This document shows, in pieces, positions 3,763 through 17,487 of a DNA stretch of 18,804 nt. Each line of letters begins with the position of its first letter. Within the stretch, counting starts at the first letter, position 1. The DNA comes from an uncultured archaeon (GTDB lineage Archaea; Asgardarchaeota; Thorarchaeia; Thorarchaeales; Thorarchaeaceae): assembly GCA_964458565.1 (NCBI GenBank), contig CAYWJO010000058.1:1-18804 (forward strand), written 5' to 3'. Under the pieces are notes generated by a model. It was not told the DNA's origin. It did no database searches and saw nothing but the letters and a program-made list of their open reading frames with translations. The translations under genes and the position numbers were made by a program.

Positions 3763-5010
3763 TTATGACCAGTTGAATATGGCTGTTACAGCGAAATGGT
3801 CAGAAGCTGTAGATGCAGGGCTATAGCTGATTACATTTGCACTTGCCATTTTATCATAGAAGAATGAATTGATAATGATGAAGTCAATACGGACTGATGC
3901 TGTATTAGACTGATGCCCATAAGTGTGACCAGGCAGTGTAGGATTAAGATGTCTGTAAACATCAGTGAAATTGTGTTGGGTTGAAGAATGGTTGCCATAG
4001 CTGATATTCAATGGGAAAAGCATCATTGTCATTGGACCATACCCTGATTCCATTCCCTCGGGAGCTAAGAGTCCAGTATCAACTGGTGAAAAGGAATTTT
4101 GATCGCTCATATATAGAATGGGCACATTACCCAGATTATCCATATAATTAATGATTCCTTCAGTTTCCATGTGTCTTCTGTTCTCGTTGGTCTCTCCTTC
4201 ACTTGCTTTTAGATGCCCCCCAATTACATGGATTTGTGTTCCATTTACATCAACAACTGCATCAATAAAATCATGAGTTACATCATAATCCGTCCCATCA
4301 TCAAGTTGAACAATTGGTATTTGAGTGAAATTCATGATAGGATATTTGGTGATGATTGCTTCACCAGATGTAGAGTATTGTATACCCTTTGCACATATCC
4401 CATCATAAAGAGGTTCGTTTTCGAAATGTGCATTTAAATCACTAACTGCATCATTGAATGATTCGTTAGCATTATCATCCATTGCACCAGTTTCAACAAG
4501 CACCAAGATGTCGGGATTTTCAGAAGATACTATGGTTTTCCAATCATCATTTAATCCTGATTCCAGAATGTTATACACCATCACTTTCAATGTTCCATTG
4601 AAAGTTTTCAGCACTTCATCGTGATTATCAACTACTACTTGAAAGAATCGACCAGCACTCTCTCCATGTGAATCTTCCGTGATTAATTTCAGAGTATGCT
4701 TACCATCAGGAATTAATGAGGTATCCCATGAGTATACTCCATCTGCGGTTGCGATGAAATTTCCATCGACGTAGACATTTGCATCGAGCTCCTCCTCATC
4801 TTCGACGTTGAATGTAACTTGAACTGTTCCAGATAATATGTCTCCAGGAGTAGGATTCTCAACAACTATTATTGGACGCTCATTATCTGGTATATCATTA
4901 GAGTTCCCTGCAAGAAGCGTAACAACGATGGTTGAAGTAATTATCACTAATATTAGTACTACAACAATTGTTGGTTTTTTATAATCCAATACAACTACCT
5001 CTGCTTCCAC
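3763..5010 (-). CDS. Membrane-anchored endonuclease/exonuclease/phosphatase (EEP, DNase I-like) family protein with an Ig-like domain
   Basis: N-terminal TM/signal anchor, then an Ig-like domain (P..GD.LSGTV.V...V.DG...YSWDT..IPDGKHTL). EEP motifs occur in canonical order: KVMVYNI, PDILVLVE, AIITKYPI, GHL, SDQN (GDFN equivalent), FTDVYR..P..GHTY, RIDFI, SDHFAV. The true start may be the TTG at 4989, which has GAGGT 7 nt upstream. Confidence 0.88.
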   Translation of the reverse strand: MEAEVVVLDYKKPTIVVVLILVIITSTIVVTLLAGNSNDIPDNERPIIVVENPTPGDILSGTVQVTFNVEDEEELDANVYVDGNFIATADGVYSWDTSLIPDGKHTLKLITEDSHGESAGRFFQVVVDNHDEVLKTFNGTLKVMVYNILESGLNDDWKTIVSSENPDILVLVETGAMDDNANESFNDAVSDLNAHFENEPLYDGICAKGIQYSTSGEAIITKYPIMNFTQIPIVQLDDGTDYDVTHDFIDAVVDVNGTQIHVIGGHLKASEGETNENRRHMETEGIINYMDNLGNVPILYMSDQNSFSPVDTGLLAPEGMESGYGPMTMMLFPLNISYGNHSSTQHNFTDVYRHLNPTLPGHTYGHQSNTASVRIDFIIINSFFYDKMASANVISYSPASTASDHFAVTAIFNWS

Positions 5011-5054: not shown

Positions 5055-8000
5055 TTATCTAAATGTATCTTCCTGGTACTCCGAAGGACGCGGAAGAGCA
5101 TCAGGTCCTTGAATTAGATATTTCGAATCGATGGCGTCAAGAACAACAAGGTATGCTTTCCTCTCTGAGTATCCATGCCTGATGAGGTCTTTGATAATGT
5201 CTTCTGCTGTTACTCCATAATCAACATGAAGAGAAGCGATTGATTCCGCGACAGGTTTTAGTTCCTGTGGCATATTCCTCTTCACACCAACATACTTCCT
5301 CATTAAAGCCCTATCAAAAAGCTGGTTAAATTTAGGATCCAATTCTGAAGCAAATTCATCCGATATGTCTGCATTAAATGATGATAATTCAAGAACTTCC
5401 TTCTGTTCATCATAATGTTCACTAATCTCTTTTGCGAACTCTTTGAGGATTCCCTTCTGTCTATCTGATGGAGATTCAACATTAATCATTGCACAGATTA
5501 GATGGTTAGTCTGAACTGCCGTAATTACTTCAGATATGGGTATAACAGTACCAATTGGTTCATCCATCGAGAATTCAGAGCGGAAGTGTGATATTGCACT
5601 AATGAATGAACTAAGTATCGCTTCCTCAAATCCACCCCGAATTATTTTGGAATAAATGGGTAGACCCATTTCTCTATGAATGACTTGTACTCCCATGAGA
5701 TTCTTTGCATCTTCCAACCTGGTTCTTAGAGAAAGCAGCTCGATATTATTCCTTGCTGAAACTCCAACAAAATACCGTCTACCAATCGTGAATATAGATA
5801 CTACGATGAGTAAAGCAGTTGCTCCAATAACTCCAGATAGAAACGTAGCAATGATAAATATGTCAGGATTAGCTTGAGAATTCAACACTATACCTAGTTC
5901 AAAATCCTCATAATTCTCTTTTGTAATTCGAATTAATAGCAGATATAATCCTGCTTCTGGAACTGTAATTTCAATTGAGTAAATACCATTTGTTTCATTA
6001 AAGAAATCATGAGTCAAGATGTTATCTATATCACCTGTTGTATCAAGCAGATAGTATTCAACAAGCGCTTCAGTAATCGGTTGTTGGGTGTCAGCTTCAA
6101 TAGGTGCGACTGCCAGTGAGAGTATACTACCCGCAATTCTACTATATGTTTGATTCAATAAGTATGCTGAATTTTGTGAGATTGGAATCTTCAAGACTGT
6201 CATTATGAAATTCAATGATTGTCGCTGGTATCCCTCTCGAAACAACCAAATCGTAATGTTCCAGTTTCCCTTGATAGGTTGCAGAGTGAAATTATACCAC
6301 CCATTACCAGATTCACTCTCTAGGATGAATTCAAGATATAGAAGGGGGTAACCAAATTCTGCATCAACTATACCTCCATTTATTGATGAATTATAATATA
6401 ATGCAAATTCGTATTCTCTACCTTCAAAGTAAGAATCCAACATTCCGTAAGTTTTGATGCTTGTGGAAATTTCGCCAATATCAAATCTGACTGATGTGTC
6501 AGCATATTCATATCCATATTTCGAGATTCTCAAATATACGGTATATGATCCGGTGGAAGTTACCCTCACTGAAACATTGTAAATCCCATCACCAAACTCA
6601 TCTGTTTGTATCAATGTAGAAGGACTCTGTGTGGTGTTGATATTGGCCCCTTCAATACCGTTTCCGTTATGATGATAGAAAACTGAGAACGAATAGGTTT
6701 GATTATAGTACATTATTTCTGGCAACCCACGTCCAATATTATTAAGCTGTGTTGATATAGGTCCCACAATTAGATAAAATGATGCTGCGCTAGTAGTGAG
6801 CCCTTCACCCGTTCCGGTGAGTGTGATGATATATGTGCCAATTATTGAGGCAGTGAATTCTAAAGTATAATTTCCAATTTCTCCAAAAACGGGCGTTGCT
6901 TCACTAAACGATAATCCTTCCTGTGGTCCAGACCATGTAAGAATTGAAATATTGGCATTAGCAATTCCATCGCCATCTAGAAACATGTATCTTACTTTTA
7001 TAGTGCAATTATTACCAGGACTCAATTCAACATACTGATTCCCTATGATTGTCATTATCGTAAGGGCTGTAACATGGACTATTATTGTGCAATTAGTATC
7101 TTCAAAGTATGGTGCATTCACTTCTACATTGAGTTCATGAATTCCCACCTCTATTGAGGAGGTATTGAGATCCACTTCCCACCAATTCTTGGCAAGATTT
7201 GGACTTAAGGTAATTACTGTTCCAGACCAATTCGCTCTCACATCCAATTCATCTGATAGAACGGGAATGGCTGTGTCTTGATCATATAGGTAAACAGCGA
7301 TTGTGTAGCTATTACCATGTTCCACTTGAATTTCAGGAGTTTGTGGAAAACAATAAAGCTCGTGATGAACTTCAAACATGCCTGAACCATACGCAACTTC
7401 TGAACCATTAATCCAGAGAGCATGGATTGACCAGAGTCCTATTGATGCATTGTATGGTCCAATGGTTGCGCCTTCACTTATTATTGAGGTACTCTTGTCA
7501 TCATTTCTCTCATCTGTCAACCATAAATTATTGTCGGGATCAAACCAATGTAACTGGAGTTCAGTGAAAGGTGAATTGGATAAAACAGTTACATTGCATC
7601 TGATTCGTTGGTCACTCATGAATATCTCAGTATCATCCCAATTTTGACTAGAGTGTTTGTAGGTCTGTGTAGTAATAGATTCGATATAGTTAGGACATAT
7701 AAAATCAACTTGCCACCAACCAACGGAGTCCACTGCACCCATTGGAAGTGTTATGAAATTCACATCTGCGTATGCTTGTTGTGTCACATCATCTCCGAAG
7801 GTGTTGAATACCGACGCGTTAATCCAGTCATATGGATGATAGACGATAAACCCGAGATTTTCTGCTTCCGGATGTGATTGTATATAGGTATAAAGAGTCA
7901 GATTTACATCGTCATCGATTTTTACAGAGTAAGAAACCCCGATATTCTTGAGTGACGTTGTATATGATGATTTCTCCATTTTCAACATTTTACTTACTCT

Positions 8001-9770
8001 AATTGAATAAGCAAATGATACCGTGGAATTTGCAGAGAATTCTATTGGGATTGTGGATTTACTCCATGAAGAATAATTGAGTAATGCAAAACCAATTCCC
8101 GAGTCCGATTGAATATTAACATGTTCTGTTTCTAAAGTTCCTGCCGCAAGATTAACTGCCTCGTATGAAGGTGATTCAATGCCATCTAATGAAACATCAT
8201 CAATCAATACAGTAATGAACATACCATTGGTCGAATCTCCATCCAAATCACTATCAGTGTCCAGAATCTCAACATAACTTGATGAGTAATCTACATTCAG
8301 ACTGATTCTTGCTTCAAACAGGCTTGGCGTGTAGGACAAATTAACGGGAAGATATCCTGTGTCATACCAGGTCTGTCGTTGGGTGACATTTGTCAGATCT
8401 AACGTCCAATTCCATAGAGTTTCAGTCCCATCTAGAATTTCGAATTTCAGAGTAAATATCCCCTGAAAGTGATTGCCAATTGGTCCACTTTGATAGAGAT
8501 AGTTCATCTTGAACTCAAAATCTTTCTTTTGTTCTGTGTTGTTTATCACCTGATACCAGTATATTTCAGTGCCATTGAAATGTTGATATCGATCTGGATA
8601 TTCTCGCAAATATCCCTCGTTTTCAAGTGAAATATACCTACCATCTTCTTGAACGTAGGATGTCCGTTGCCTACCTGAGTCGGAAAGAAAATCTATTCGT
8701 GCTCTCCAACCGTCAGCGTAATATGTTCCATCATTAATCCAATCTTCATTAGTTCCGGGATTTCCATTTTCAAAAGTACCGTTTTGAACATAAAGCATCT
8801 TAAGAGTATCTAAACTAATCTCTAGTTGTTCTCCTTTCCACCCATTTGCACTTGTCCAAACATCCATGTTGAATGTGTATAAACCAGTTGGAATTAGACC
8901 TTCAACACCTGATGAATCAATAAGATTCTTTTCAAATTTATAGTAATTCTCTAGGCCATCCTCAGATCCAATAAGTGTCTGATTGAAATCACTTGCAATC
9001 TCTTTTAATCCTCTCTCTATGGAATAATATCTGAAATCATCAACACGACCATCAACTTGCTGATCAGATCTTGAGATTGAATTCATGATATTATTCTCTG
9101 TGTGTAGTCCCACTACCGAATCGACCCATGAATTCGTTGATGCATCTTCAGTGGGATTCGTTGTTTCATCGCCCCAATAGATTGAAAGAGAATTAGAAGT
9201 CTGATTCCATGCAATTGCAATAAAATACCAATGGTCCACTTCCCAGGTGTTCTTGGAACCGAACATAGTATTATCTGAACCCCAGTCCAAAACAAGCCTG
9301 CCACTATCCCATCGTGTTTCAAAATTTGCATGTTGTCCCCAAAATCTACCATGCGGTGCAGTTCCGTCCCATTTAATCCAACATGAGATAGTCCCTGCAG
9401 GTGATCCAAAATCACCTGAGCCTCCAACACCTACATAGAAATATCCTCCTGAACAATCTCCGGAGTATTGATTTCCAGGATCTCCTGATGGTAAATATGC
9501 TTCAGAAAAGGGACTTGAATAAACATCTGTACGGGCAATACCAGTATTGATCCAACTTGACGAGGTGCTAGCTAAGTGTTCTACTGTCACCGGATTCAAT
9601 GTTCCTGCTGATTCAGAGTCTGCTACATGATTATTTGTCTGATGAAGAAGGGGTTTCTCTGACCCATGATGCATACTATCCTCTAATAATGATTCCAGAG
9701 GGGGAGTAAAAGGAATCCCAAATAGTAAAATGACTACAATTAGTCCTATGACTATTTGTGGTCTTCTCAA
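5055..9770 (-). CDS. Giant type I membrane protein: signal peptide, LamG/ConA-like jelly-roll domain, multiple beta-sandwich/Ig-like domains, one TM helix, ~240-aa cytoplasmic domain (longin-like + helical/wHTH-like end)
   Basis: TTG start with GGAGG at 9782-9778. Basic + hydrophobic N-terminus. LamG motifs GTISCWIK, WYFIAIAWN, LSIYWG, DGRVDDFRYY, YYKFE (about 9440-8930). More than 25 NxS/T sequons before the TM helix (IFIIATFLSGVIGATALLIVVSIFTIG, about 5862-5780) and none after it. Confidence 0.85.
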   Translation of the reverse strand: MRRPQIVIGLIVVILLFGIPFTPPLESLLEDSMHHGSEKPLLHQTNNHVADSESAGTLNPVTVEHLASTSSSWINTGIARTDVYSSPFSEAYLPSGDPGNQYSGDCSGGYFYVGVGGSGDFGSPAGTISCWIKWDGTAPHGRFWGQHANFETRWDSGRLVLDWGSDNTMFGSKNTWEVDHWYFIAIAWNQTSNSLSIYWGDETTNPTEDASTNSWVDSVVGLHTENNIMNSISRSDQQVDGRVDDFRYYSIERGLKEIASDFNQTLIGSEDGLENYYKFEKNLIDSSGVEGLIPTGLYTFNMDVWTSANGWKGEQLEISLDTLKMLYVQNGTFENGNPGTNEDWINDGTYYADGWRARIDFLSDSGRQRTSYVQEDGRYISLENEGYLREYPDRYQHFNGTEIYWYQVINNTEQKKDFEFKMNYLYQSGPIGNHFQGIFTLKFEILDGTETLWNWTLDLTNVTQRQTWYDTGYLPVNLSYTPSLFEARISLNVDYSSSYVEILDTDSDLDGDSTNGMFITVLIDDVSLDGIESPSYEAVNLAAGTLETEHVNIQSDSGIGFALLNYSSWSKSTIPIEFSANSTVSFAYSIRVSKMLKMEKSSYTTSLKNIGVSYSVKIDDDVNLTLYTYIQSHPEAENLGFIVYHPYDWINASVFNTFGDDVTQQAYADVNFITLPMGAVDSVGWWQVDFICPNYIESITTQTYKHSSQNWDDTEIFMSDQRIRCNVTVLSNSPFTELQLHWFDPDNNLWLTDERNDDKSTSIISEGATIGPYNASIGLWSIHALWINGSEVAYGSGMFEVHHELYCFPQTPEIQVEHGNSYTIAVYLYDQDTAIPVLSDELDVRANWSGTVITLSPNLAKNWWEVDLNTSSIEVGIHELNVEVNAPYFEDTNCTIIVHVTALTIMTIIGNQYVELSPGNNCTIKVRYMFLDGDGIANANISILTWSGPQEGLSFSEATPVFGEIGNYTLEFTASIIGTYIITLTGTGEGLTTSAASFYLIVGPISTQLNNIGRGLPEIMYYNQTYSFSVFYHHNGNGIEGANINTTQSPSTLIQTDEFGDGIYNVSVRVTSTGSYTVYLRISKYGYEYADTSVRFDIGEISTSIKTYGMLDSYFEGREYEFALYYNSSINGGIVDAEFGYPLLYLEFILESESGNGWYNFTLQPIKGNWNITIWLFREGYQRQSLNFIMTVLKIPISQNSAYLLNQTYSRIAGSILSLAVAPIEADTQQPITEALVEYYLLDTTGDIDNILTHDFFNETNGIYSIEITVPEAGLYLLLIRITKENYEDFELGIVLNSQANPDIFIIATFLSGVIGATALLIVVSIFTIGRRYFVGVSARNNIELLSLRTRLEDAKNLMGVQVIHREMGLPIYSKIIRGGFEEAILSSFISAISHFRSEFSMDEPIGTVIPISEVITAVQTNHLICAMINVESPSDRQKGILKEFAKEISEHYDEQKEVLELSSFNADISDEFASELDPKFNQLFDRALMRKYVGVKRNMPQELKPVAESIASLHVDYGVTAEDIIKDLIRHGYSERKAYLVVLDAIDSKYLIQGPDALPRPSEYQEDTFR

Positions 9771-12451: not shown

Positions 12452-13357
12452 TCAACCTCTAACATGTCTATCTAAGAGAATACTTCCGAGGGTTTTTCTG
12501 TTAGTAGCTCTGAAATGCAGCATTGTTGAGCAGCTCTGAATCCCTGGATAACTCAATATCTCTTGGCTTATCTCTTCCATCTCTGAAATCTCGTTAGTCG
12601 TCAGGAAGGAAAACATCGTATTATAAGATGGGTAATCTCTTGAACCCCAATATTCCATTAGGTATTTTCCATACATCCAATTAAGGAACTCATCTTTGAT
12701 TATTAGGTTTGGATTGTAGCTGATCTTACAAGTAAACGTGAGACCTCTGCCGCGATTAGGATTCCAGATGGGTAAATATCGTACTCGTTGATCTTTGTCA
12801 AATTGGTTAAGAATCATAGTTACTCGTTTTACTGTGAGTCCCGTTCTATCTGCTATTTCATGGGGTTGCATTCGTACATCATCGAGTAGTTGTTCAAGAA
12901 CTTTTAATTCATGATTAGAGAATTCAGGAAACTCAAGTTGTTGCTCAGAAGAGTATTGCAATTCATACCTCTCAATTCTTACAACTCCATTCACCTTTTC
13001 TATTGTCTTAGCAAGAGTTTCTAGTTGCTCTCTACTAATGTATTCTATAGCAATGTAGAAATCACCTGTAATTATTGGGTGTATTCGATATACTATCTCA
13101 TGCTTGAAGACTTTATCTGTGAAGATATCAATTGGGATAGATGAGTCGGTATAGACCATGAATGTTGCTAATCGAAGATTCAGAAGCGCTGGATTAGGGA
13201 AGAGCTCGAAACTCTCTATGAATCCGTCTTTTAAAAGCCTATCAACTCGCTTCTTGATGGAAGAGGGACCTAAGCCAATTTTCTTACTCATCTCACGGTA
13301 GCTCAAACGACAGTTTGTCATTAATTGCCCTATGATTTCCTTATCTTTCATATCCAA
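12452..13357 (-). CDS. Lrp/AsnC-type winged-helix transcriptional regulator with an internally duplicated (HTH + RAM-like) x2 architecture
   Basis: HTH1 DMKDKEIIGQLMTNCRLSYREMSKKIGLGPSSIKKRVDRLLKDGFI. HTH2 SNHELKVLEQLLDDVRMQPHEIADRTGLTVKRV. Each is followed by a beta-alpha ferredoxin-like segment ending in ..I..V.GV / ..IL..PGI. Confidence 0.88.
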   Translation of the reverse strand: MDMKDKEIIGQLMTNCRLSYREMSKKIGLGPSSIKKRVDRLLKDGFIESFELFPNPALLNLRLATFMVYTDSSIPIDIFTDKVFKHEIVYRIHPIITGDFYIAIEYISREQLETLAKTIEKVNGVVRIERYELQYSSEQQLEFPEFSNHELKVLEQLLDDVRMQPHEIADRTGLTVKRVTMILNQFDKDQRVRYLPIWNPNRGRGLTFTCKISYNPNLIIKDEFLNWMYGKYLMEYWGSRDYPSYNTMFSFLTTNEISEMEEISQEILSYPGIQSCSTMLHFRATNRKTLGSILLDRHVRG

Positions 13358-13513: not shown

Positions 13514-16500
13514 TCAATTTTTGCGTCTTCGATTTACATAGATGATTGTAATCACAACCAAGATAACAGATGGTATTGCTATCACTAGTATATCTGATAT
13601 TGAAGTGGGACTGCCAATAACAGTCACAACGACTGTGTCAGAAGACTGTTGCATGAATATATCAGTGAGTCGGAGTGTGACTGAATAATTCCCAATACTA
13701 TTACTAATGAATGAATAATGTATATCAGATCCATTCCACAGACCTGATTGCATAGAAGTGTCGTTTACCCTTATTTCATAATTCCAGGGAGCTATGTCAA
13801 ACCCAGTCCAGTTGATGATAATCTCCGTATTCAACTGTAAAGTAAAATCATCTGGTCCTACAATAAATGGAGGGTCAGCAATTCTTGTTGGGATATTATA
13901 GTAATTGGCAATAATTGCATCGAGCTCTATGAAGTTCCCCTCAAAATAATCAATGCGAACATATCTGACAGTGTCCAAAAACATACCTTCCAGATCAATA
14001 CTCGCATTACCATTAAAAATACCAAGCTGGTGCAAAGGCACGTTAAGTGCATTCGCCACTCTTACAGCATAAGAACCACCTGCAGCGATAACCTGAAAGT
14101 CATTACCCGCCCCATTAATTATCTCCTCCCCTTCACCCATATCTAGTGTTACATATCCATTACCATACTCTGTGAATATCGTAGTAGTATTCCCATCTGG
14201 CGAACCAATAGCATTCTCACCATCTGAATACCAGATTGATCTTGAGGATATCAGCTCATCCGCATAAGGATCACCCATGTCAAGAACAATATTGATGATT
14301 GTGACTGCAATGTCTGTATTTTCTTCGACATCGTTCACAAACAAGGTCAGATTATATTCTCCAGGAGCCCACTCCGGAGTTATCCATTCATCCACAGCGA
14401 TTGAAATGATTACAGCAGATACTATACCTTCAGCGAATAGATTATCGTTCTTCCAGATTTCCCATTCACTTGCTCCATGTACCTCCCATTCAAATACAGT
14501 GTTTTCAGTTCCCCACTCAATAATAGTGGGTGTAGGAGTAGCGGCGATAATTGGAATATCTGGCGGCAGGACCGTAATTAGAATAGTCTTGGTTGAGTAC
14601 ATGTCCACCCGGTCATATGCTAAAAATGTGACATTGTGGACACCCTCTAGTAATATAGGTAGGTCCCAAAGCACTGTCTCATTTTGATTGATCCAAATTT
14701 CCGTCGATGCTTGGGTTCCATCTATAAGAATCTCCCAGAATCGAGGACTACGGTCAAAAATATTCCATCTAAGAGTAATTGATTGATTCCAGATGAGTTG
14801 TGTGTCTGTAAAGGCCGTGCTGATGATTGGAGGAACAGCAGGATATACAGTAGCCCAAAAGAAATCACCATATAGAATTTCTGAATTGTTTAGTAGAATA
14901 AATGTCACATTGTAAACTCCAAGCGATAACAAATTCAGATCAAGATTGATATCATCACCACTCCAGAGTCCCGATTGGGTTACACTACCGTTTAGAGTGA
15001 GTGTGAAAGACAGCGGTGCTACTGTGAGTCCGGACCAGATGATAGTAGAATTGGGTTGTCCTTTCTCAATTGACATGGGTCCACTATACTCTATATGAAA
15101 TGGACCAACCTCGACCATTACTGTATCAGATATCGATTGTCCAAAATCGTTAGATATCAGCAAGGTGGCATTGTGGAATCCGTCTGCTAAGCTACCAATA
15201 TTGAAGGTGAGGTTTGTCGGTCGCCAGTATTTCTCAAAATCAAATGCACCAGAATCCATCATCACATCATCAATATACATTTGATAACTGCCTGGAAGAT
15301 ACTGTTTTGTTCTGTAATTGTACCAGCCCTCCCATGGAATCACAACTTCAGTACCAGACAATGCAAACATGTCTTTTGGAGAGTTAATAGTTGGGGTCAT
15401 TGTAAAACGTTCTGAGCGATAGGTTCCATATGTGCCATCTGAAGCTTGAAGGAAATCCAACTTCCAGACAACATTGCCATATGTGTCCACTTCAATGATT
15501 CCAGCTGTTATACCTACAGATGTAGTATGACCATAGCCAAAAGTACCAAGTCTATCACCATTTGGAAGCCGGTCTGCATCACCCCAACCTGGTGAGTAGT
15601 ATTCCGGGGGAGCAGTCCAAGACCAGCTTTCATATGCTGTCATAGTATCCTCATCGATTGTAATCTCAAGAATTCTCGAGTTATGCGAATCGGCATCCTC
15701 TTGATTGTGTAGGTCATTATCAAAGATGATGAAGGTATTTTCATCAACCCTCTCAACTGAATGTGCATGATAGAAGAGACTCTCCTTCTGAAGACCATTC
15801 TTATCAAAAAGCGTGAAATTACCATGCTCTCCGAGACCCCAGAGGATCTCACCAGAGGAATGATCGATTTTAAAGAATGTATTCGTGTTCCGACTATTGT
15901 AATATATTATGTCATCATCGACGTCAAAGAATATTGAATTTGAGTGAGTGACATCTGGTTGACCGAGCTCAATATCATAAAATGGACACCACCACTCAGG
16001 AGGAATAAAAGTGCTGGTGTTTAGCGACCAGATTACGTGCCCGTCACTGTCTCCTTCATATATTATATCATAGAGGTATGGTATATCATTAAAATATTCA
16101 AGAGTTCTATTGAAAGTAAACACTGTGTTTGCAAGAGGATTATATTCATACTCATGGTGACCTTTGAAAGCAATCTGTTCGAATGAATCATTGGCTAGGT
16201 TCCAAAAAGCTGGTCCAACATCAGTGCCAACTAGAATAGTGTTAGGATTGATGAATTTAGCCATTGAATCATATGTAAAGAGTTCTCCAATCCATCGTTC
16301 TTTAATGATATTGCCATCCATATCTGTGATGATGAGAGTGTTATTGTGGATATCAGATTTTTTACCAAGAACGAAGAGGTTGTAACCTTCGAACTCATTA
16401 CCAGTCCGAGTTACTGAAAAATATGAATCGTTAGTGTCTGCAATTTTCGCATTTTCATTTATTGGTAATGGATTCGGGGAAGTAGGTATCTTCTTAATAT

Positions 16501-16666
16501 TTGAGATTGTCCCTGTAACGGGCAAAGAGGATAGGGAGATAAGAATGATGATAACGAGCCCTAGCAGTGTTTTATTTGATATCTTGGTTATGGCACCAAT
16601 AGAACGCAATAGCATCATGCACATCATGAAACACAATCCAGAAAGAGTTTTCCCTGCATTGGTCAT
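13514..16666 (-). CDS. Surface-anchored aryl-sulfate sulfotransferase (ASST) family beta-propeller + ~5 Ig-like repeats + galactose-binding-like jelly-roll + C-terminal TM
   Basis: ASST motifs HHE (16159-16151), HSNS (15946-15935), YNSRNTNTFFKID..SGEILWGLG, FYHAH (H at 15763), IFDN, SRILEI.ID, YSPGWGDADRLPNG, YRSERF. Repeats of P.I..P.D.....I.W....P..Y.I..DG....G.W. C-terminal ILVIAIPSVILVVITIIYV-NRRRKN. Start uncertain: ATGs at 16666, 16627, 16624, 16618, 16615. Confidence 0.85.
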   Translation of the reverse strand: MTNAGKTLSGLCFMMCMMLLRSIGAITKISNKTLLGLVIIILISLSSLPVTGTISNIKKIPTSPNPLPINENAKIADTNDSYFSVTRTGNEFEGYNLFVLGKKSDIHNNTLIITDMDGNIIKERWIGELFTYDSMAKFINPNTILVGTDVGPAFWNLANDSFEQIAFKGHHEYEYNPLANTVFTFNRTLEYFNDIPYLYDIIYEGDSDGHVIWSLNTSTFIPPEWWCPFYDIELGQPDVTHSNSIFFDVDDDIIYYNSRNTNTFFKIDHSSGEILWGLGEHGNFTLFDKNGLQKESLFYHAHSVERVDENTFIIFDNDLHNQEDADSHNSRILEITIDEDTMTAYESWSWTAPPEYYSPGWGDADRLPNGDRLGTFGYGHTTSVGITAGIIEVDTYGNVVWKLDFLQASDGTYGTYRSERFTMTPTINSPKDMFALSGTEVVIPWEGWYNYRTKQYLPGSYQMYIDDVMMDSGAFDFEKYWRPTNLTFNIGSLADGFHNATLLISNDFGQSISDTVMVEVGPFHIEYSGPMSIEKGQPNSTIIWSGLTVAPLSFTLTLNGSVTQSGLWSGDDINLDLNLLSLGVYNVTFILLNNSEILYGDFFWATVYPAVPPIISTAFTDTQLIWNQSITLRWNIFDRSPRFWEILIDGTQASTEIWINQNETVLWDLPILLEGVHNVTFLAYDRVDMYSTKTILITVLPPDIPIIAATPTPTIIEWGTENTVFEWEVHGASEWEIWKNDNLFAEGIVSAVIISIAVDEWITPEWAPGEYNLTLFVNDVEENTDIAVTIINIVLDMGDPYADELISSRSIWYSDGENAIGSPDGNTTTIFTEYGNGYVTLDMGEGEEIINGAGNDFQVIAAGGSYAVRVANALNVPLHQLGIFNGNASIDLEGMFLDTVRYVRIDYFEGNFIELDAIIANYYNIPTRIADPPFIVGPDDFTLQLNTEIIINWTGFDIAPWNYEIRVNDTSMQSGLWNGSDIHYSFISNSIGNYSVTLRLTDIFMQQSSDTVVVTVIGSPTSISDILVIAIPSVILVVITIIYVNRRRKN

Positions 16667-16704: not shown

Positions 16705-17487
16705 CTAGAACTTCTCCTTCTCTGCAATCATACCTAAAGCATAAGCAACAGCAGACTTAACATAGGTGTCTTCGTCATTGAGGTGTTTTTTCAGGGCTGG
16801 AATTGCACTCACATCTCCGATTTGTCCAAGAGCCTGTGCAGCCTGCCATCTGACATTTCTGTTTTCATCATCTAACGCAATTATCAAATGCGATAATCCT
16901 CTTGAATCACCAATCATTCCCAGAACCTTAGCTGCATTTTTTCTATCTGTCCAAGACTTCCGACTCAAAGCATGAATTAGAACCTCAAGAGCGACCTCCT
17001 GAATTTTCATCAATGAATGAGTTGCTTCTATTCGTACTTGATCGTTTTCATCTTTCAATGATTCAAGTAACAACTCTGCTGATTGCCGATCATCAACACT
17101 TCCCAGATCTATAATAGCCCTAGCTCGGACTGATGAATCCTTACTCTCTAAGTTTTCTGATAGACCATCTGTTTCTCCAGATTGTTCTATTTTTCCAACT
17201 GCCCACGCTGCAGCTGATTTTACGAATTTATCGGGATCATTCAAAGCTCTAACTAGTAACGGAATACTCCGAGAATCACCTATTTGACCAAGGGAAGATG
17301 CAGCACATCTTCTGATTATTGGGTCCTCATCCTGCAATACTTCGCCTAATGCTCCAATTGCTAAAGCATCACCTATACGACCAAGCGCTTCAACAGCTTG
17401 TTTTTTCATATCTATATCATCTGAGGATAGAATCGAGATTAGACTTACAATATCTCTATTCATTTCTAACTCAGTAACAGATGACAT
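16705..17487 (-). CDS. HEAT-repeat (PBS lyase HEAT-like / HEAT_2) protein, 8 repeats of ~31 aa
   Basis: Consensus AI..L...L.D.D..VR..AA.ALG.IGD repeated 8 times across the whole protein. GAGGT RBS at 17498-17494. Confidence 0.92.
   Translation of the reverse strand: MSSVTELEMNRDIVSLISILSSDDIDMKKQAVEALGRIGDALAIGALGEVLQDEDPIIRRCAASSLGQIGDSRSIPLLVRALNDPDKFVKSAAAWAVGKIEQSGETDGLSENLESKDSSVRARAIIDLGSVDDRQSAELLLESLKDENDQVRIEATHSLMKIQEVALEVLIHALSRKSWTDRKNAAKVLGMIGDSRGLSHLIIALDDENRNVRWQAAQALGQIGDVSAIPALKKHLNDEDTYVKSAVAYALGMIAEKEKF

Follow-up and report, generated by a model that had tools for sequence, protein, structure and literature searches.

The eukaryotic signature proteins (ESPs) of Asgard archaea include longin domains, and how these organisms use an expanded repertoire of GTPases, longins and roadblock proteins in cells without endomembranes is the question raised by the locus described here. 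The DNA analysed is a stretch of 18,804 nucleotides (hereafter the window) from an uncultured member of the Thorarchaeaceae (assembly GCA_964458565.1, contig CAYWJO010000058.1), which carries on its minus strand a gene for a protein of 1571 amino acids (aa). Its product is a giant surface protein that spans the membrane once and is heavily N-glycosylated, with a LamG-like head, a long beta-rich immunoglobulin (Ig)-like stalk, a transmembrane (TM) helix and a folded cytoplasmic module. According to structure prediction, this module starts with a rigid, basic helix next to the membrane, followed by a compact longin domain and a small domain resembling a winged helix; profile searches indicate that the module defines a protein family that is unnamed and missing from the curated collections.

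The protein is encoded in a single uninterrupted frame of 4716 bases, ORF 5055-9770(-), with its stop codon at 5055-5057 and a TTG start at 9770. An identical 1571-aa protein, nameless, is already held in a public collection (P0128). The tail region treated in a preliminary description of the window comprises the final 808 bases of this frame. Two hydrophobic segments were identified by hydropathy, at aa 4-25 and aa 1304-1330, and the features of the protein are as follows.

9696..9761, minus strand: N-terminal hydrophobic segment (aa 4-25), a signal peptide or signal anchor, preceded by RR; hydropathy 2.4 over 19 aa.
5862..9695, minus strand: ectodomain (aa 26-1303, ~1280 aa) with 29 N-glycosylation sequons.
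8871..9593, minus strand: LamG/concanavalin-like head (about aa 60-300), assigned from homologue P0130 and Atlas features.
5781..5861, minus strand: transmembrane helix (aa 1304-1330), hydropathy 2.48, with GRRYF directly after it.
5058-5780, minus strand: tail of 241 aa (aa 1331-1571), the interval of the preliminary description.
5700..5777, minus strand: basic juxtamembrane helix (tail residues 2-27), predicted local distance difference test (pLDDT) score about 97 in the AlphaFold2 model.
5310..5699, minus strand: predicted longin domain, b-b-a-b-b-b-a-a-a (tail residues 28-157), from the AlphaFold2 model, structural matches and conservation.
5103..5309, minus strand: winged-helix-like domain (tail residues 158-226).
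5058..5102, minus strand: poorly conserved C-terminal end (tail residues 227-241), modelled with low confidence (pLDDT 57-64).

All 29 N-x-S/T sequons of the protein precede the TM helix, compared with 16 expected from composition (Poisson P 0.002), and the tail contains none against 0.9 expected, a count that is uninformative taken alone. When 51 family members were pooled, 1693 sequons fell in the ectodomains, where 757 were expected, and 17 in the tails, where 38 were expected; the densities are 2.58 and 0.14 per 100 aa, respectively, 18x higher before the TM helix than after it. Net charge in the family has a median of +5 in the juxtamembrane stretch, which is basic, and of -9 in the longin part, which is acidic. 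Because of the pooled sequon contrast and the basic juxtamembrane stretch, the tail is predicted to be cytoplasmic and the bulk of the protein an extracellular glycoprotein, which bears out the topology previously proposed from the abundance of sequons before the TM helix and their absence after it.

An AlphaFold2 model of the tail, built on an alignment of 55 sequences (A1), had a pLDDT of 91.3 and a predicted template modelling (pTM) score of 0.85. Secondary structure assignment on the model with DSSP gave, in tail numbering, a helix at 2-27, strands at 28-35 and 41-46, a helix at 53-67, strands at 79-81, 86-90 and 94-100, and helices at 106-123, 127-133 and 137-154, followed by a C-terminal strand-helix-helix-helix-strand unit (residues 163-224). 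The model thus has the longin order b1-b2-a1-b3-b4-b5-a2-a3 of an alpha/beta/alpha sandwich, and reproduces all of the elements that had been named when this order was read from the sequence. It superposes on solved longins across most of the domain, well above unrelated folds, with structural match scores of 11.9 for Sec22b (root mean square deviation 2.8, 123/128 residues), 11.5 for the COPI chain 9qpq_L, about 11 for TRAPP subunits and sedlin, 10-11 for adaptor protein (AP) sigma subunits, 10.4 for Fuzzy, 10.1 for SRX, 9.2-9.4 for GATOR1 chains and 9.3 for a Lokiarchaeal longin (8yqg). A Foldseek-independent search of 48,161 representative chains placed longins alone on top (synbindin 11.6, AP-3 sigma 11.1), with roadblock proteins (MglB, MglC and an Asgard roadblock protein) at 8.1-8.3. 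These are the structure prediction and structural search that the preliminary description had suggested; longins top both lists, and the fold of the tail, as modelled, is that of a longin. A profilin-like reading of the tail was rejected, no profilin being present among the 50 matches listed in either structural (VIA) list.

The modelled longin appears nearer to compact trafficking-type longins than to roadblock proteins or the large longins of GTPase-activating (GAP) and exchange (GEF) factors, with differences in Z among longin subclasses too small for a subclass to be assigned. Sequence searches with the tail gave no match in Pfam or NCBIfam, and nothing at E <= 10 in a profile search of PDB sequences. 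The compact eukaryotic longins of Sec22b/VAMP7/Ykt6, TRAPPC1/C2/C4 (Bet5, sedlin, synbindin), the sigma/zeta and mu/delta-N subunits of AP and COPI, and SRX of the signal recognition particle (SRP) receptor fold alike, with 4-15% identity to the tail and no profile match. To this compact longin the tail adds a long N-terminal helix and a C-terminal winged-helix-like domain. The order of parts also differs from that of longin SNAREs, in which a longin is followed by the SNARE motif and the TM segment with no ectodomain, whereas in the Asgard protein a giant ectodomain is followed by the TM helix and then the longin. GATOR1 NPRL2/NPRL3, FLCN-FNIP (Lst7-Lst4), C9orf72-SMCR8, Mon1-Ccz1, Fuzzy-Inturned and BLOC-3 are soluble, multi-subunit systems with DENN domains or further longins; compared with longin-type GTPase regulators, the tail is one membrane-anchored longin, with G-x-P instead of G-P and no partner subunit or GTPase linked by gene order. 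Asgard proteins such as the Lokiarchaeal Roadblock-Longin (8yqg/8yqk), Thor-RB and MKD1-RB (PMC10933270) are soluble and cytosolic, whereas the tail longin is anchored in the membrane. Membrane-associated platforms are known among roadblock proteins, with Ragulator/LAMTOR serving Rag GTPases and MglB serving MglA.

Residues D24, G39, F59, A62, F66 and P81 (tail numbering) are invariant in the family alignment, and R21, G30, P41, S44, I60, R67, E69, T91, L94, C96, A97, D124, D156, L159, G203 and E206 are at least 90% conserved (R21 91%, P41 93%, R67 95%); Y43 was counted with the invariant or near-invariant residues. F59, A62 and F66 track the buried face of helix a1. From the longin strand order, G39-x-P41 in the b1-b2 hairpin, R67-x-E69 at the end of a1, P81 at the start of b3 and T91 in the b4-b5 turn should cluster at one end of the sheet, and the topology would place R21/D24, G49-G50-x-x-E53 and S83-D/E84 at the opposite end, beside the juxtamembrane helix.

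Certain longins, namely FLCN, NPRL2 and SMCR8, accelerate GTP hydrolysis by GTPases, and the hairpin raises the question of whether the tail, alone or with a second longin, could likewise act catalytically on an Arf- or Rag-like GTPase through its Gly-Pro and a nearby arginine. A GP motif at the end of the loop before strand 2, with an adjacent arginine finger, has been described as characteristic of GAP-type longins (such as FLCN, NPRL2, SMCR8 and C9orf72) and also of certain Asgard longins (PMC12290439). The hairpin of the tail family reads G-L-P, with one residue between G39 and P41, so the likeness to the GAP-type motif is suggestive and not a match. The candidate arginine, R67, lies at the C-terminal end of a1, where the topology would bring it near the hairpin. 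No second longin and no GTPase is linked to the gene by gene order (a linkage that function does not require), and we regard a catalytic role of this kind as improbable.

The family was delimited by a HMMER search of 1.8 billion cluster representatives, in which 126 clusters at 50% identity matched the tail. The match is C-terminal in almost all of these, in proteins mostly of about 700-2300 aa; the short matches are probably fragments. Named relatives are all called "hypothetical protein" and assigned to Thorarchaeota, with one labelled Sifarchaeia and one locus Hermodarchaeota. In a tail profile search of 301 genomes of the phylum (Asgardarchaeota), matches at ~1e-60 to 1e-99 were confined to the gene's own GTDB family, save one genome elsewhere. 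Matches over the full length are nearly restricted to this family. Within it, 67 of the 76 genomes match at E <= 1e-10, most at ~1e-60 to 1e-99, with 1-6 copies per genome. Weaker matches (1e-9 to 1e-22) in other Asgard families end frames of several hundred to about 1900 aa, and all seven of the divergent matches examined have the TM helix first, then the basic helix and the same hairpin and helix motifs, indicating that the design is broader than Thorarchaeia. The expectation that similar proteins exist as hypotheticals in other Asgard genomes was therefore confirmed by both sequence and profile searches.

Three full members are present in the source genome, on the window's contig (C58), on contig C6 (2043 aa) and on contig C9 (1625 aa). 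The fourth member, L019 (C24:2769-9140(+)), is distant: in this surface protein of 2123 aa a TM helix and a basic helix are followed by a longin-like tail (profile E 8e-7, small search) and then by a highly acidic C-terminal extension of ~110 aa, and no part of it has a Pfam match. The preliminary description had envisaged paralogues that share the tail and carry different ectodomains. This was not what was found: from about aa 311 onward the ectodomains of the paralogues align as homologues, with 29% identity over 1041 columns, and they differ in the N-terminal head, the alignment starting at residue 155 in the C9 paralogue and at 311 in the 1571-aa protein. An apparent stand-alone soluble copy of the tail (L036, CP070658.1) proved to be an artefact of a 100-N scaffold gap (L036:9900-9999) that cuts a family gene; the gap sits in a record described as a complete chromosome, and the cut tail mimics a stand-alone protein of 205 aa.

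The presence of several paralogues per genome, often in tandem, is in keeping with a second kind of role, in which tails bind each other as homo- or heterodimers, or a cytoskeletal or scaffold element, and thereby cluster, position or anchor surface proteins with no GTPase involved. Loci were collected by a related-locus search with a 14-row alignment, and tandem copies occur in 13 of these 78 family loci. The confidently modelled, rigid juxtamembrane helix would suit such an organising or anchoring module, as would the dimeric state of a solved Asgard longin among the structural matches (8yqg) and the lack of GTPase enrichment in the neighbourhood described below. Against it, positive evidence for self-association was not obtained, and complex prediction with two copies of residues 1-228 (alignment A1) gave a score of 0.00, which speaks neither for nor against self-association. 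Furthermore, the exposed polar R67 and E69 and the G-x-P hairpin are kept across paralogues, which fits a common external partner at least equally well. We consider a purely organising role unlikely.

We tentatively favour, at a confidence short of probable, the reading that the tail acts as a docking platform, tethered to the membrane, to which a cytosolic partner binds; small-GTPase machinery or a longin/roadblock protein would be the likeliest candidate. In this proposal the juxtamembrane helix would hold the longin domain at a fixed distance from the membrane, and the longin domain would recruit its partner (in the likeliest case a small GTPase, or else a regulator of one that contains a longin or roadblock domain) to the site of the surface protein. 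The partner would bind a conserved face to which the b1-b2 hairpin (G-x-P), the end of a1 (R-x-E) and the edge strand b2 all contribute, and docking could couple the cell surface with intracellular machinery in either direction. Solved longins are protein platforms, mostly for small GTPases, as in TRAPP, Mon1-Ccz1, SRX-SRbeta, GATOR1 and FLCN-FNIP, all of which are present among the structural matches of the tail. The source genome is well supplied with possible partners, encoding about 30 small GTPases and several soluble longin proteins that are homologous to the tail.

Several observations weigh against the docking proposal. A shared fold does not prove a shared function, and the Pfam families Longin, Clat_adaptor_s, Sybindin, Sedlin_N and Fuz_longin_1 were unmatched at E <= 1 by the tail and the 55 family members, so that homology to any functional longin subclass is unproven. 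Conservation of the tail does not exceed that of the ectodomain: identity among close relatives is 48-52% for the tail and 54% for the ectodomain, and paralogues share about 29% in either part. Proteins predicted in the 78 family loci were clustered, giving 531 non-family proteins, among which small GTPases, detected with a hidden Markov model (HMM) built from the source genome's own small GTPases, were not enriched (1/531 against about 4.6 expected from the genome rate of 30 in 3492). Soluble longin relatives were absent as neighbours from the family loci, and no GTPase, longin or roadblock gene was a conserved neighbour in them. The recurrent Pfam-annotated neighbours are housekeeping genes, with FolE2, PTPS, DNA ligase and methionyl-tRNA synthetase (MetRS) in one fixed arrangement and PPDK, a pyridoxal phosphate (PLP) enzyme and acetyl-CoA synthetase in another, and reflect synteny among related species. 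None of the four family genes of the source genome has a GTPase gene nearby; the only one on a shared contig, C6, is 35 kb away from the family gene. A brief inspection of five further genomes, four from another Asgard family and one from a third, showed distances to GTPase genes no shorter than expected by chance from the high density of such genes (25-84 per genome). With no support from gene order, the link to GTPases derives solely from what solved longins do. The coupling to GTPase or cytoskeletal machinery put forward in the preliminary description was accordingly not supported, as no GTPase, longin or roadblock gene was a conserved neighbour and no partner was identified.

Residues 30-400 of the 1571-aa protein, at the head of the ectodomain, share 54% identity with a homologue (P0130) that bears a precomputed PF13385 (Laminin_G_3) match, and Laminin_G_3 clusters scored 0.96 in an Atlas feature search, with 148-153 features in common. 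LamG falls below Pfam detection in the 1571-aa protein itself, and the remainder of the ectodomain gave weak, sub-threshold Pfam matches to Ig-like/E-set families (YtkA, Big_1, Filamin). The LamG-type head suggested earlier is upheld by these data as a reasonable sequence-based assignment. It is conceivable, though we consider it doubtful, that Asgard archaea possess widespread true transmembrane receptors in which a giant ectodomain that senses glycans or adhesion is joined rigidly, via the TM helix and the juxtamembrane helix, to a longin/winged-helix platform, and in which this platform recruits or regulates one of the numerous Asgard small GTPases at the plasma membrane.

The C-terminal domain is winged-helix-like in the model, and the best structural matches of this domain in isolation include the DNA-binding winged-helix domains of SAMD1, KAT6A, MecI/BlaI and Fur. 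Together with weak TrmB/HTH (helix-turn-helix) matches in soluble paralogues, these matches could indicate a membrane-tethered transcription regulator, in which the winged helix binds DNA as in one-component sensors of the ToxR/CadC type, perhaps after release of the tail. The domain is about neutral, with a family median net charge of -1, and its sole near-invariant residues are G203 and E206, which argues against DNA binding; neither the family alignment nor the charge revealed a conserved basic recognition helix or wing. We regard a regulator of this kind as highly improbable; under the docking proposal the winged helix would serve as a further module for contacts with proteins rather than with DNA.

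Soluble longin proteins of the source genome are homologous to the longin part of the tail (E 1e-12 to 1e-3), and two others have sub-threshold Fuz_longin_1 matches. Genes for soluble longins occur as adjoining, co-oriented paralogue pairs (L005, C13:76807-78538; L006, C61:8373-10636), of which the C61 pair has winged-HTH-like C-termini and weak Fuz_longin_1 matches. A 396-aa soluble longin protein precedes a 2423-aa giant gene on contig C17; the possibility that the tail is a fused form of this protein was discarded, as it had no match to the tail profile at E <= 1.

Other giant surface proteins of the source genome bear on whether the tail might be a biogenesis or sorting tag, recognised by the machinery for insertion, glycosylation or placement of very large surface proteins that have a C-terminal anchor. 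A loose analogue exists in the SRX longin of the SRP receptor, which docks on SRbeta. However, most giant single-pass surface proteins of this genome have tails of only 6-40 residues and others have a tail of an unrelated kind, so that such proteins can be made without the module, and we judge a sorting role to be decidedly improbable. A second class of giant single-pass proteins, of 2423-5599 aa (C3:108048-124847(-), C3:96715-106293(-), C29:18272-26032(+) and C17:22578-29849(+)), has a non-longin cytoplasmic tail of 190-310 aa with no match to the longin-tail profile, and shares the motif P-K/Y-R/Q-L/I-R/K-Q-I-N…G-K right after the TM helix.

The genes flanking the 1571-aa gene, for a 415-aa TM/Ig protein, a transporter of the major facilitator superfamily (MFS) and an ATP-binding cassette (ABC) ATPase, are not conserved beside its relatives. 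The 415-aa protein (3763-5010(-)) is encoded 44 nt downstream in the same orientation, with an N-terminal TM segment, a Big_7 Ig domain and the C-terminus SDHFAV; its C-terminal part, on which Pfam is silent, presumably resembles endonuclease/exonuclease/phosphatase enzymes. At the closest orthologue loci two further genes come after the giant gene, one for a cytoplasmic leucine-rich repeat (LRR) protein of ~376 aa (L030:8458-9588(+)) and the next for a ~200-aa membrane protein with CxxC and two hydrophobic segments (L030:9629-10261(+)), with equivalents in about 20 loci. Homologues of these two proteins are encoded elsewhere in the source genome (C29:36343-37512 and C26:25482-26078, respectively) and not beside the 1571-aa gene; their linkage to the giant gene is not separable from synteny.

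Elsewhere in the window, the 1050-aa product of 13514-16666(-) is probably a surface-anchored enzyme: it contains an arylsulfotransferase (ASST, PF05935) domain and 23 sequons, and each of its ends carries a hydrophobic segment. A 260-aa protein composed entirely of HEAT repeats (HEAT_2, E 1e-52) is encoded at 16705-17487(-), and a 301-aa protein with two HTH_24 (winged-HTH) stretches at 12452-13357(-), the N-terminal stretch also matching an AsnC-type HTH model.

Full-text literature searches brought up no paper in which an Asgard longin protein is described as transmembrane or single-pass. The word 'transmembrane' is absent from a paper on the structures of Asgard GTPases, roadblock proteins and TRAPPC3 (PMC10933270), and a recent structural-clustering preprint lists longins as soluble ESP families only. 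Most genomes of one Thorarchaeial family carry the design reported here, and divergent forms of it occur in other Asgard families. A longin fixed at the inner face of the plasma membrane offers a defined location, and the tail a purifiable 241-residue bait, for finding partners. Should no GTPase or longin/roadblock partner bind, the longin fold would have been employed in a different job before eukaryotes; should one bind, the family would provide a direct link from the archaeal cell surface to a eukaryote-like switch machinery. If the receptor reading were true, these proteins would represent a prokaryotic forerunner of membrane-anchored longin/roadblock GTPase platforms such as SRalpha-SRbeta, Ragulator-Rag and TRAPP, and would give a concrete entry to the function of Asgard GTPases.

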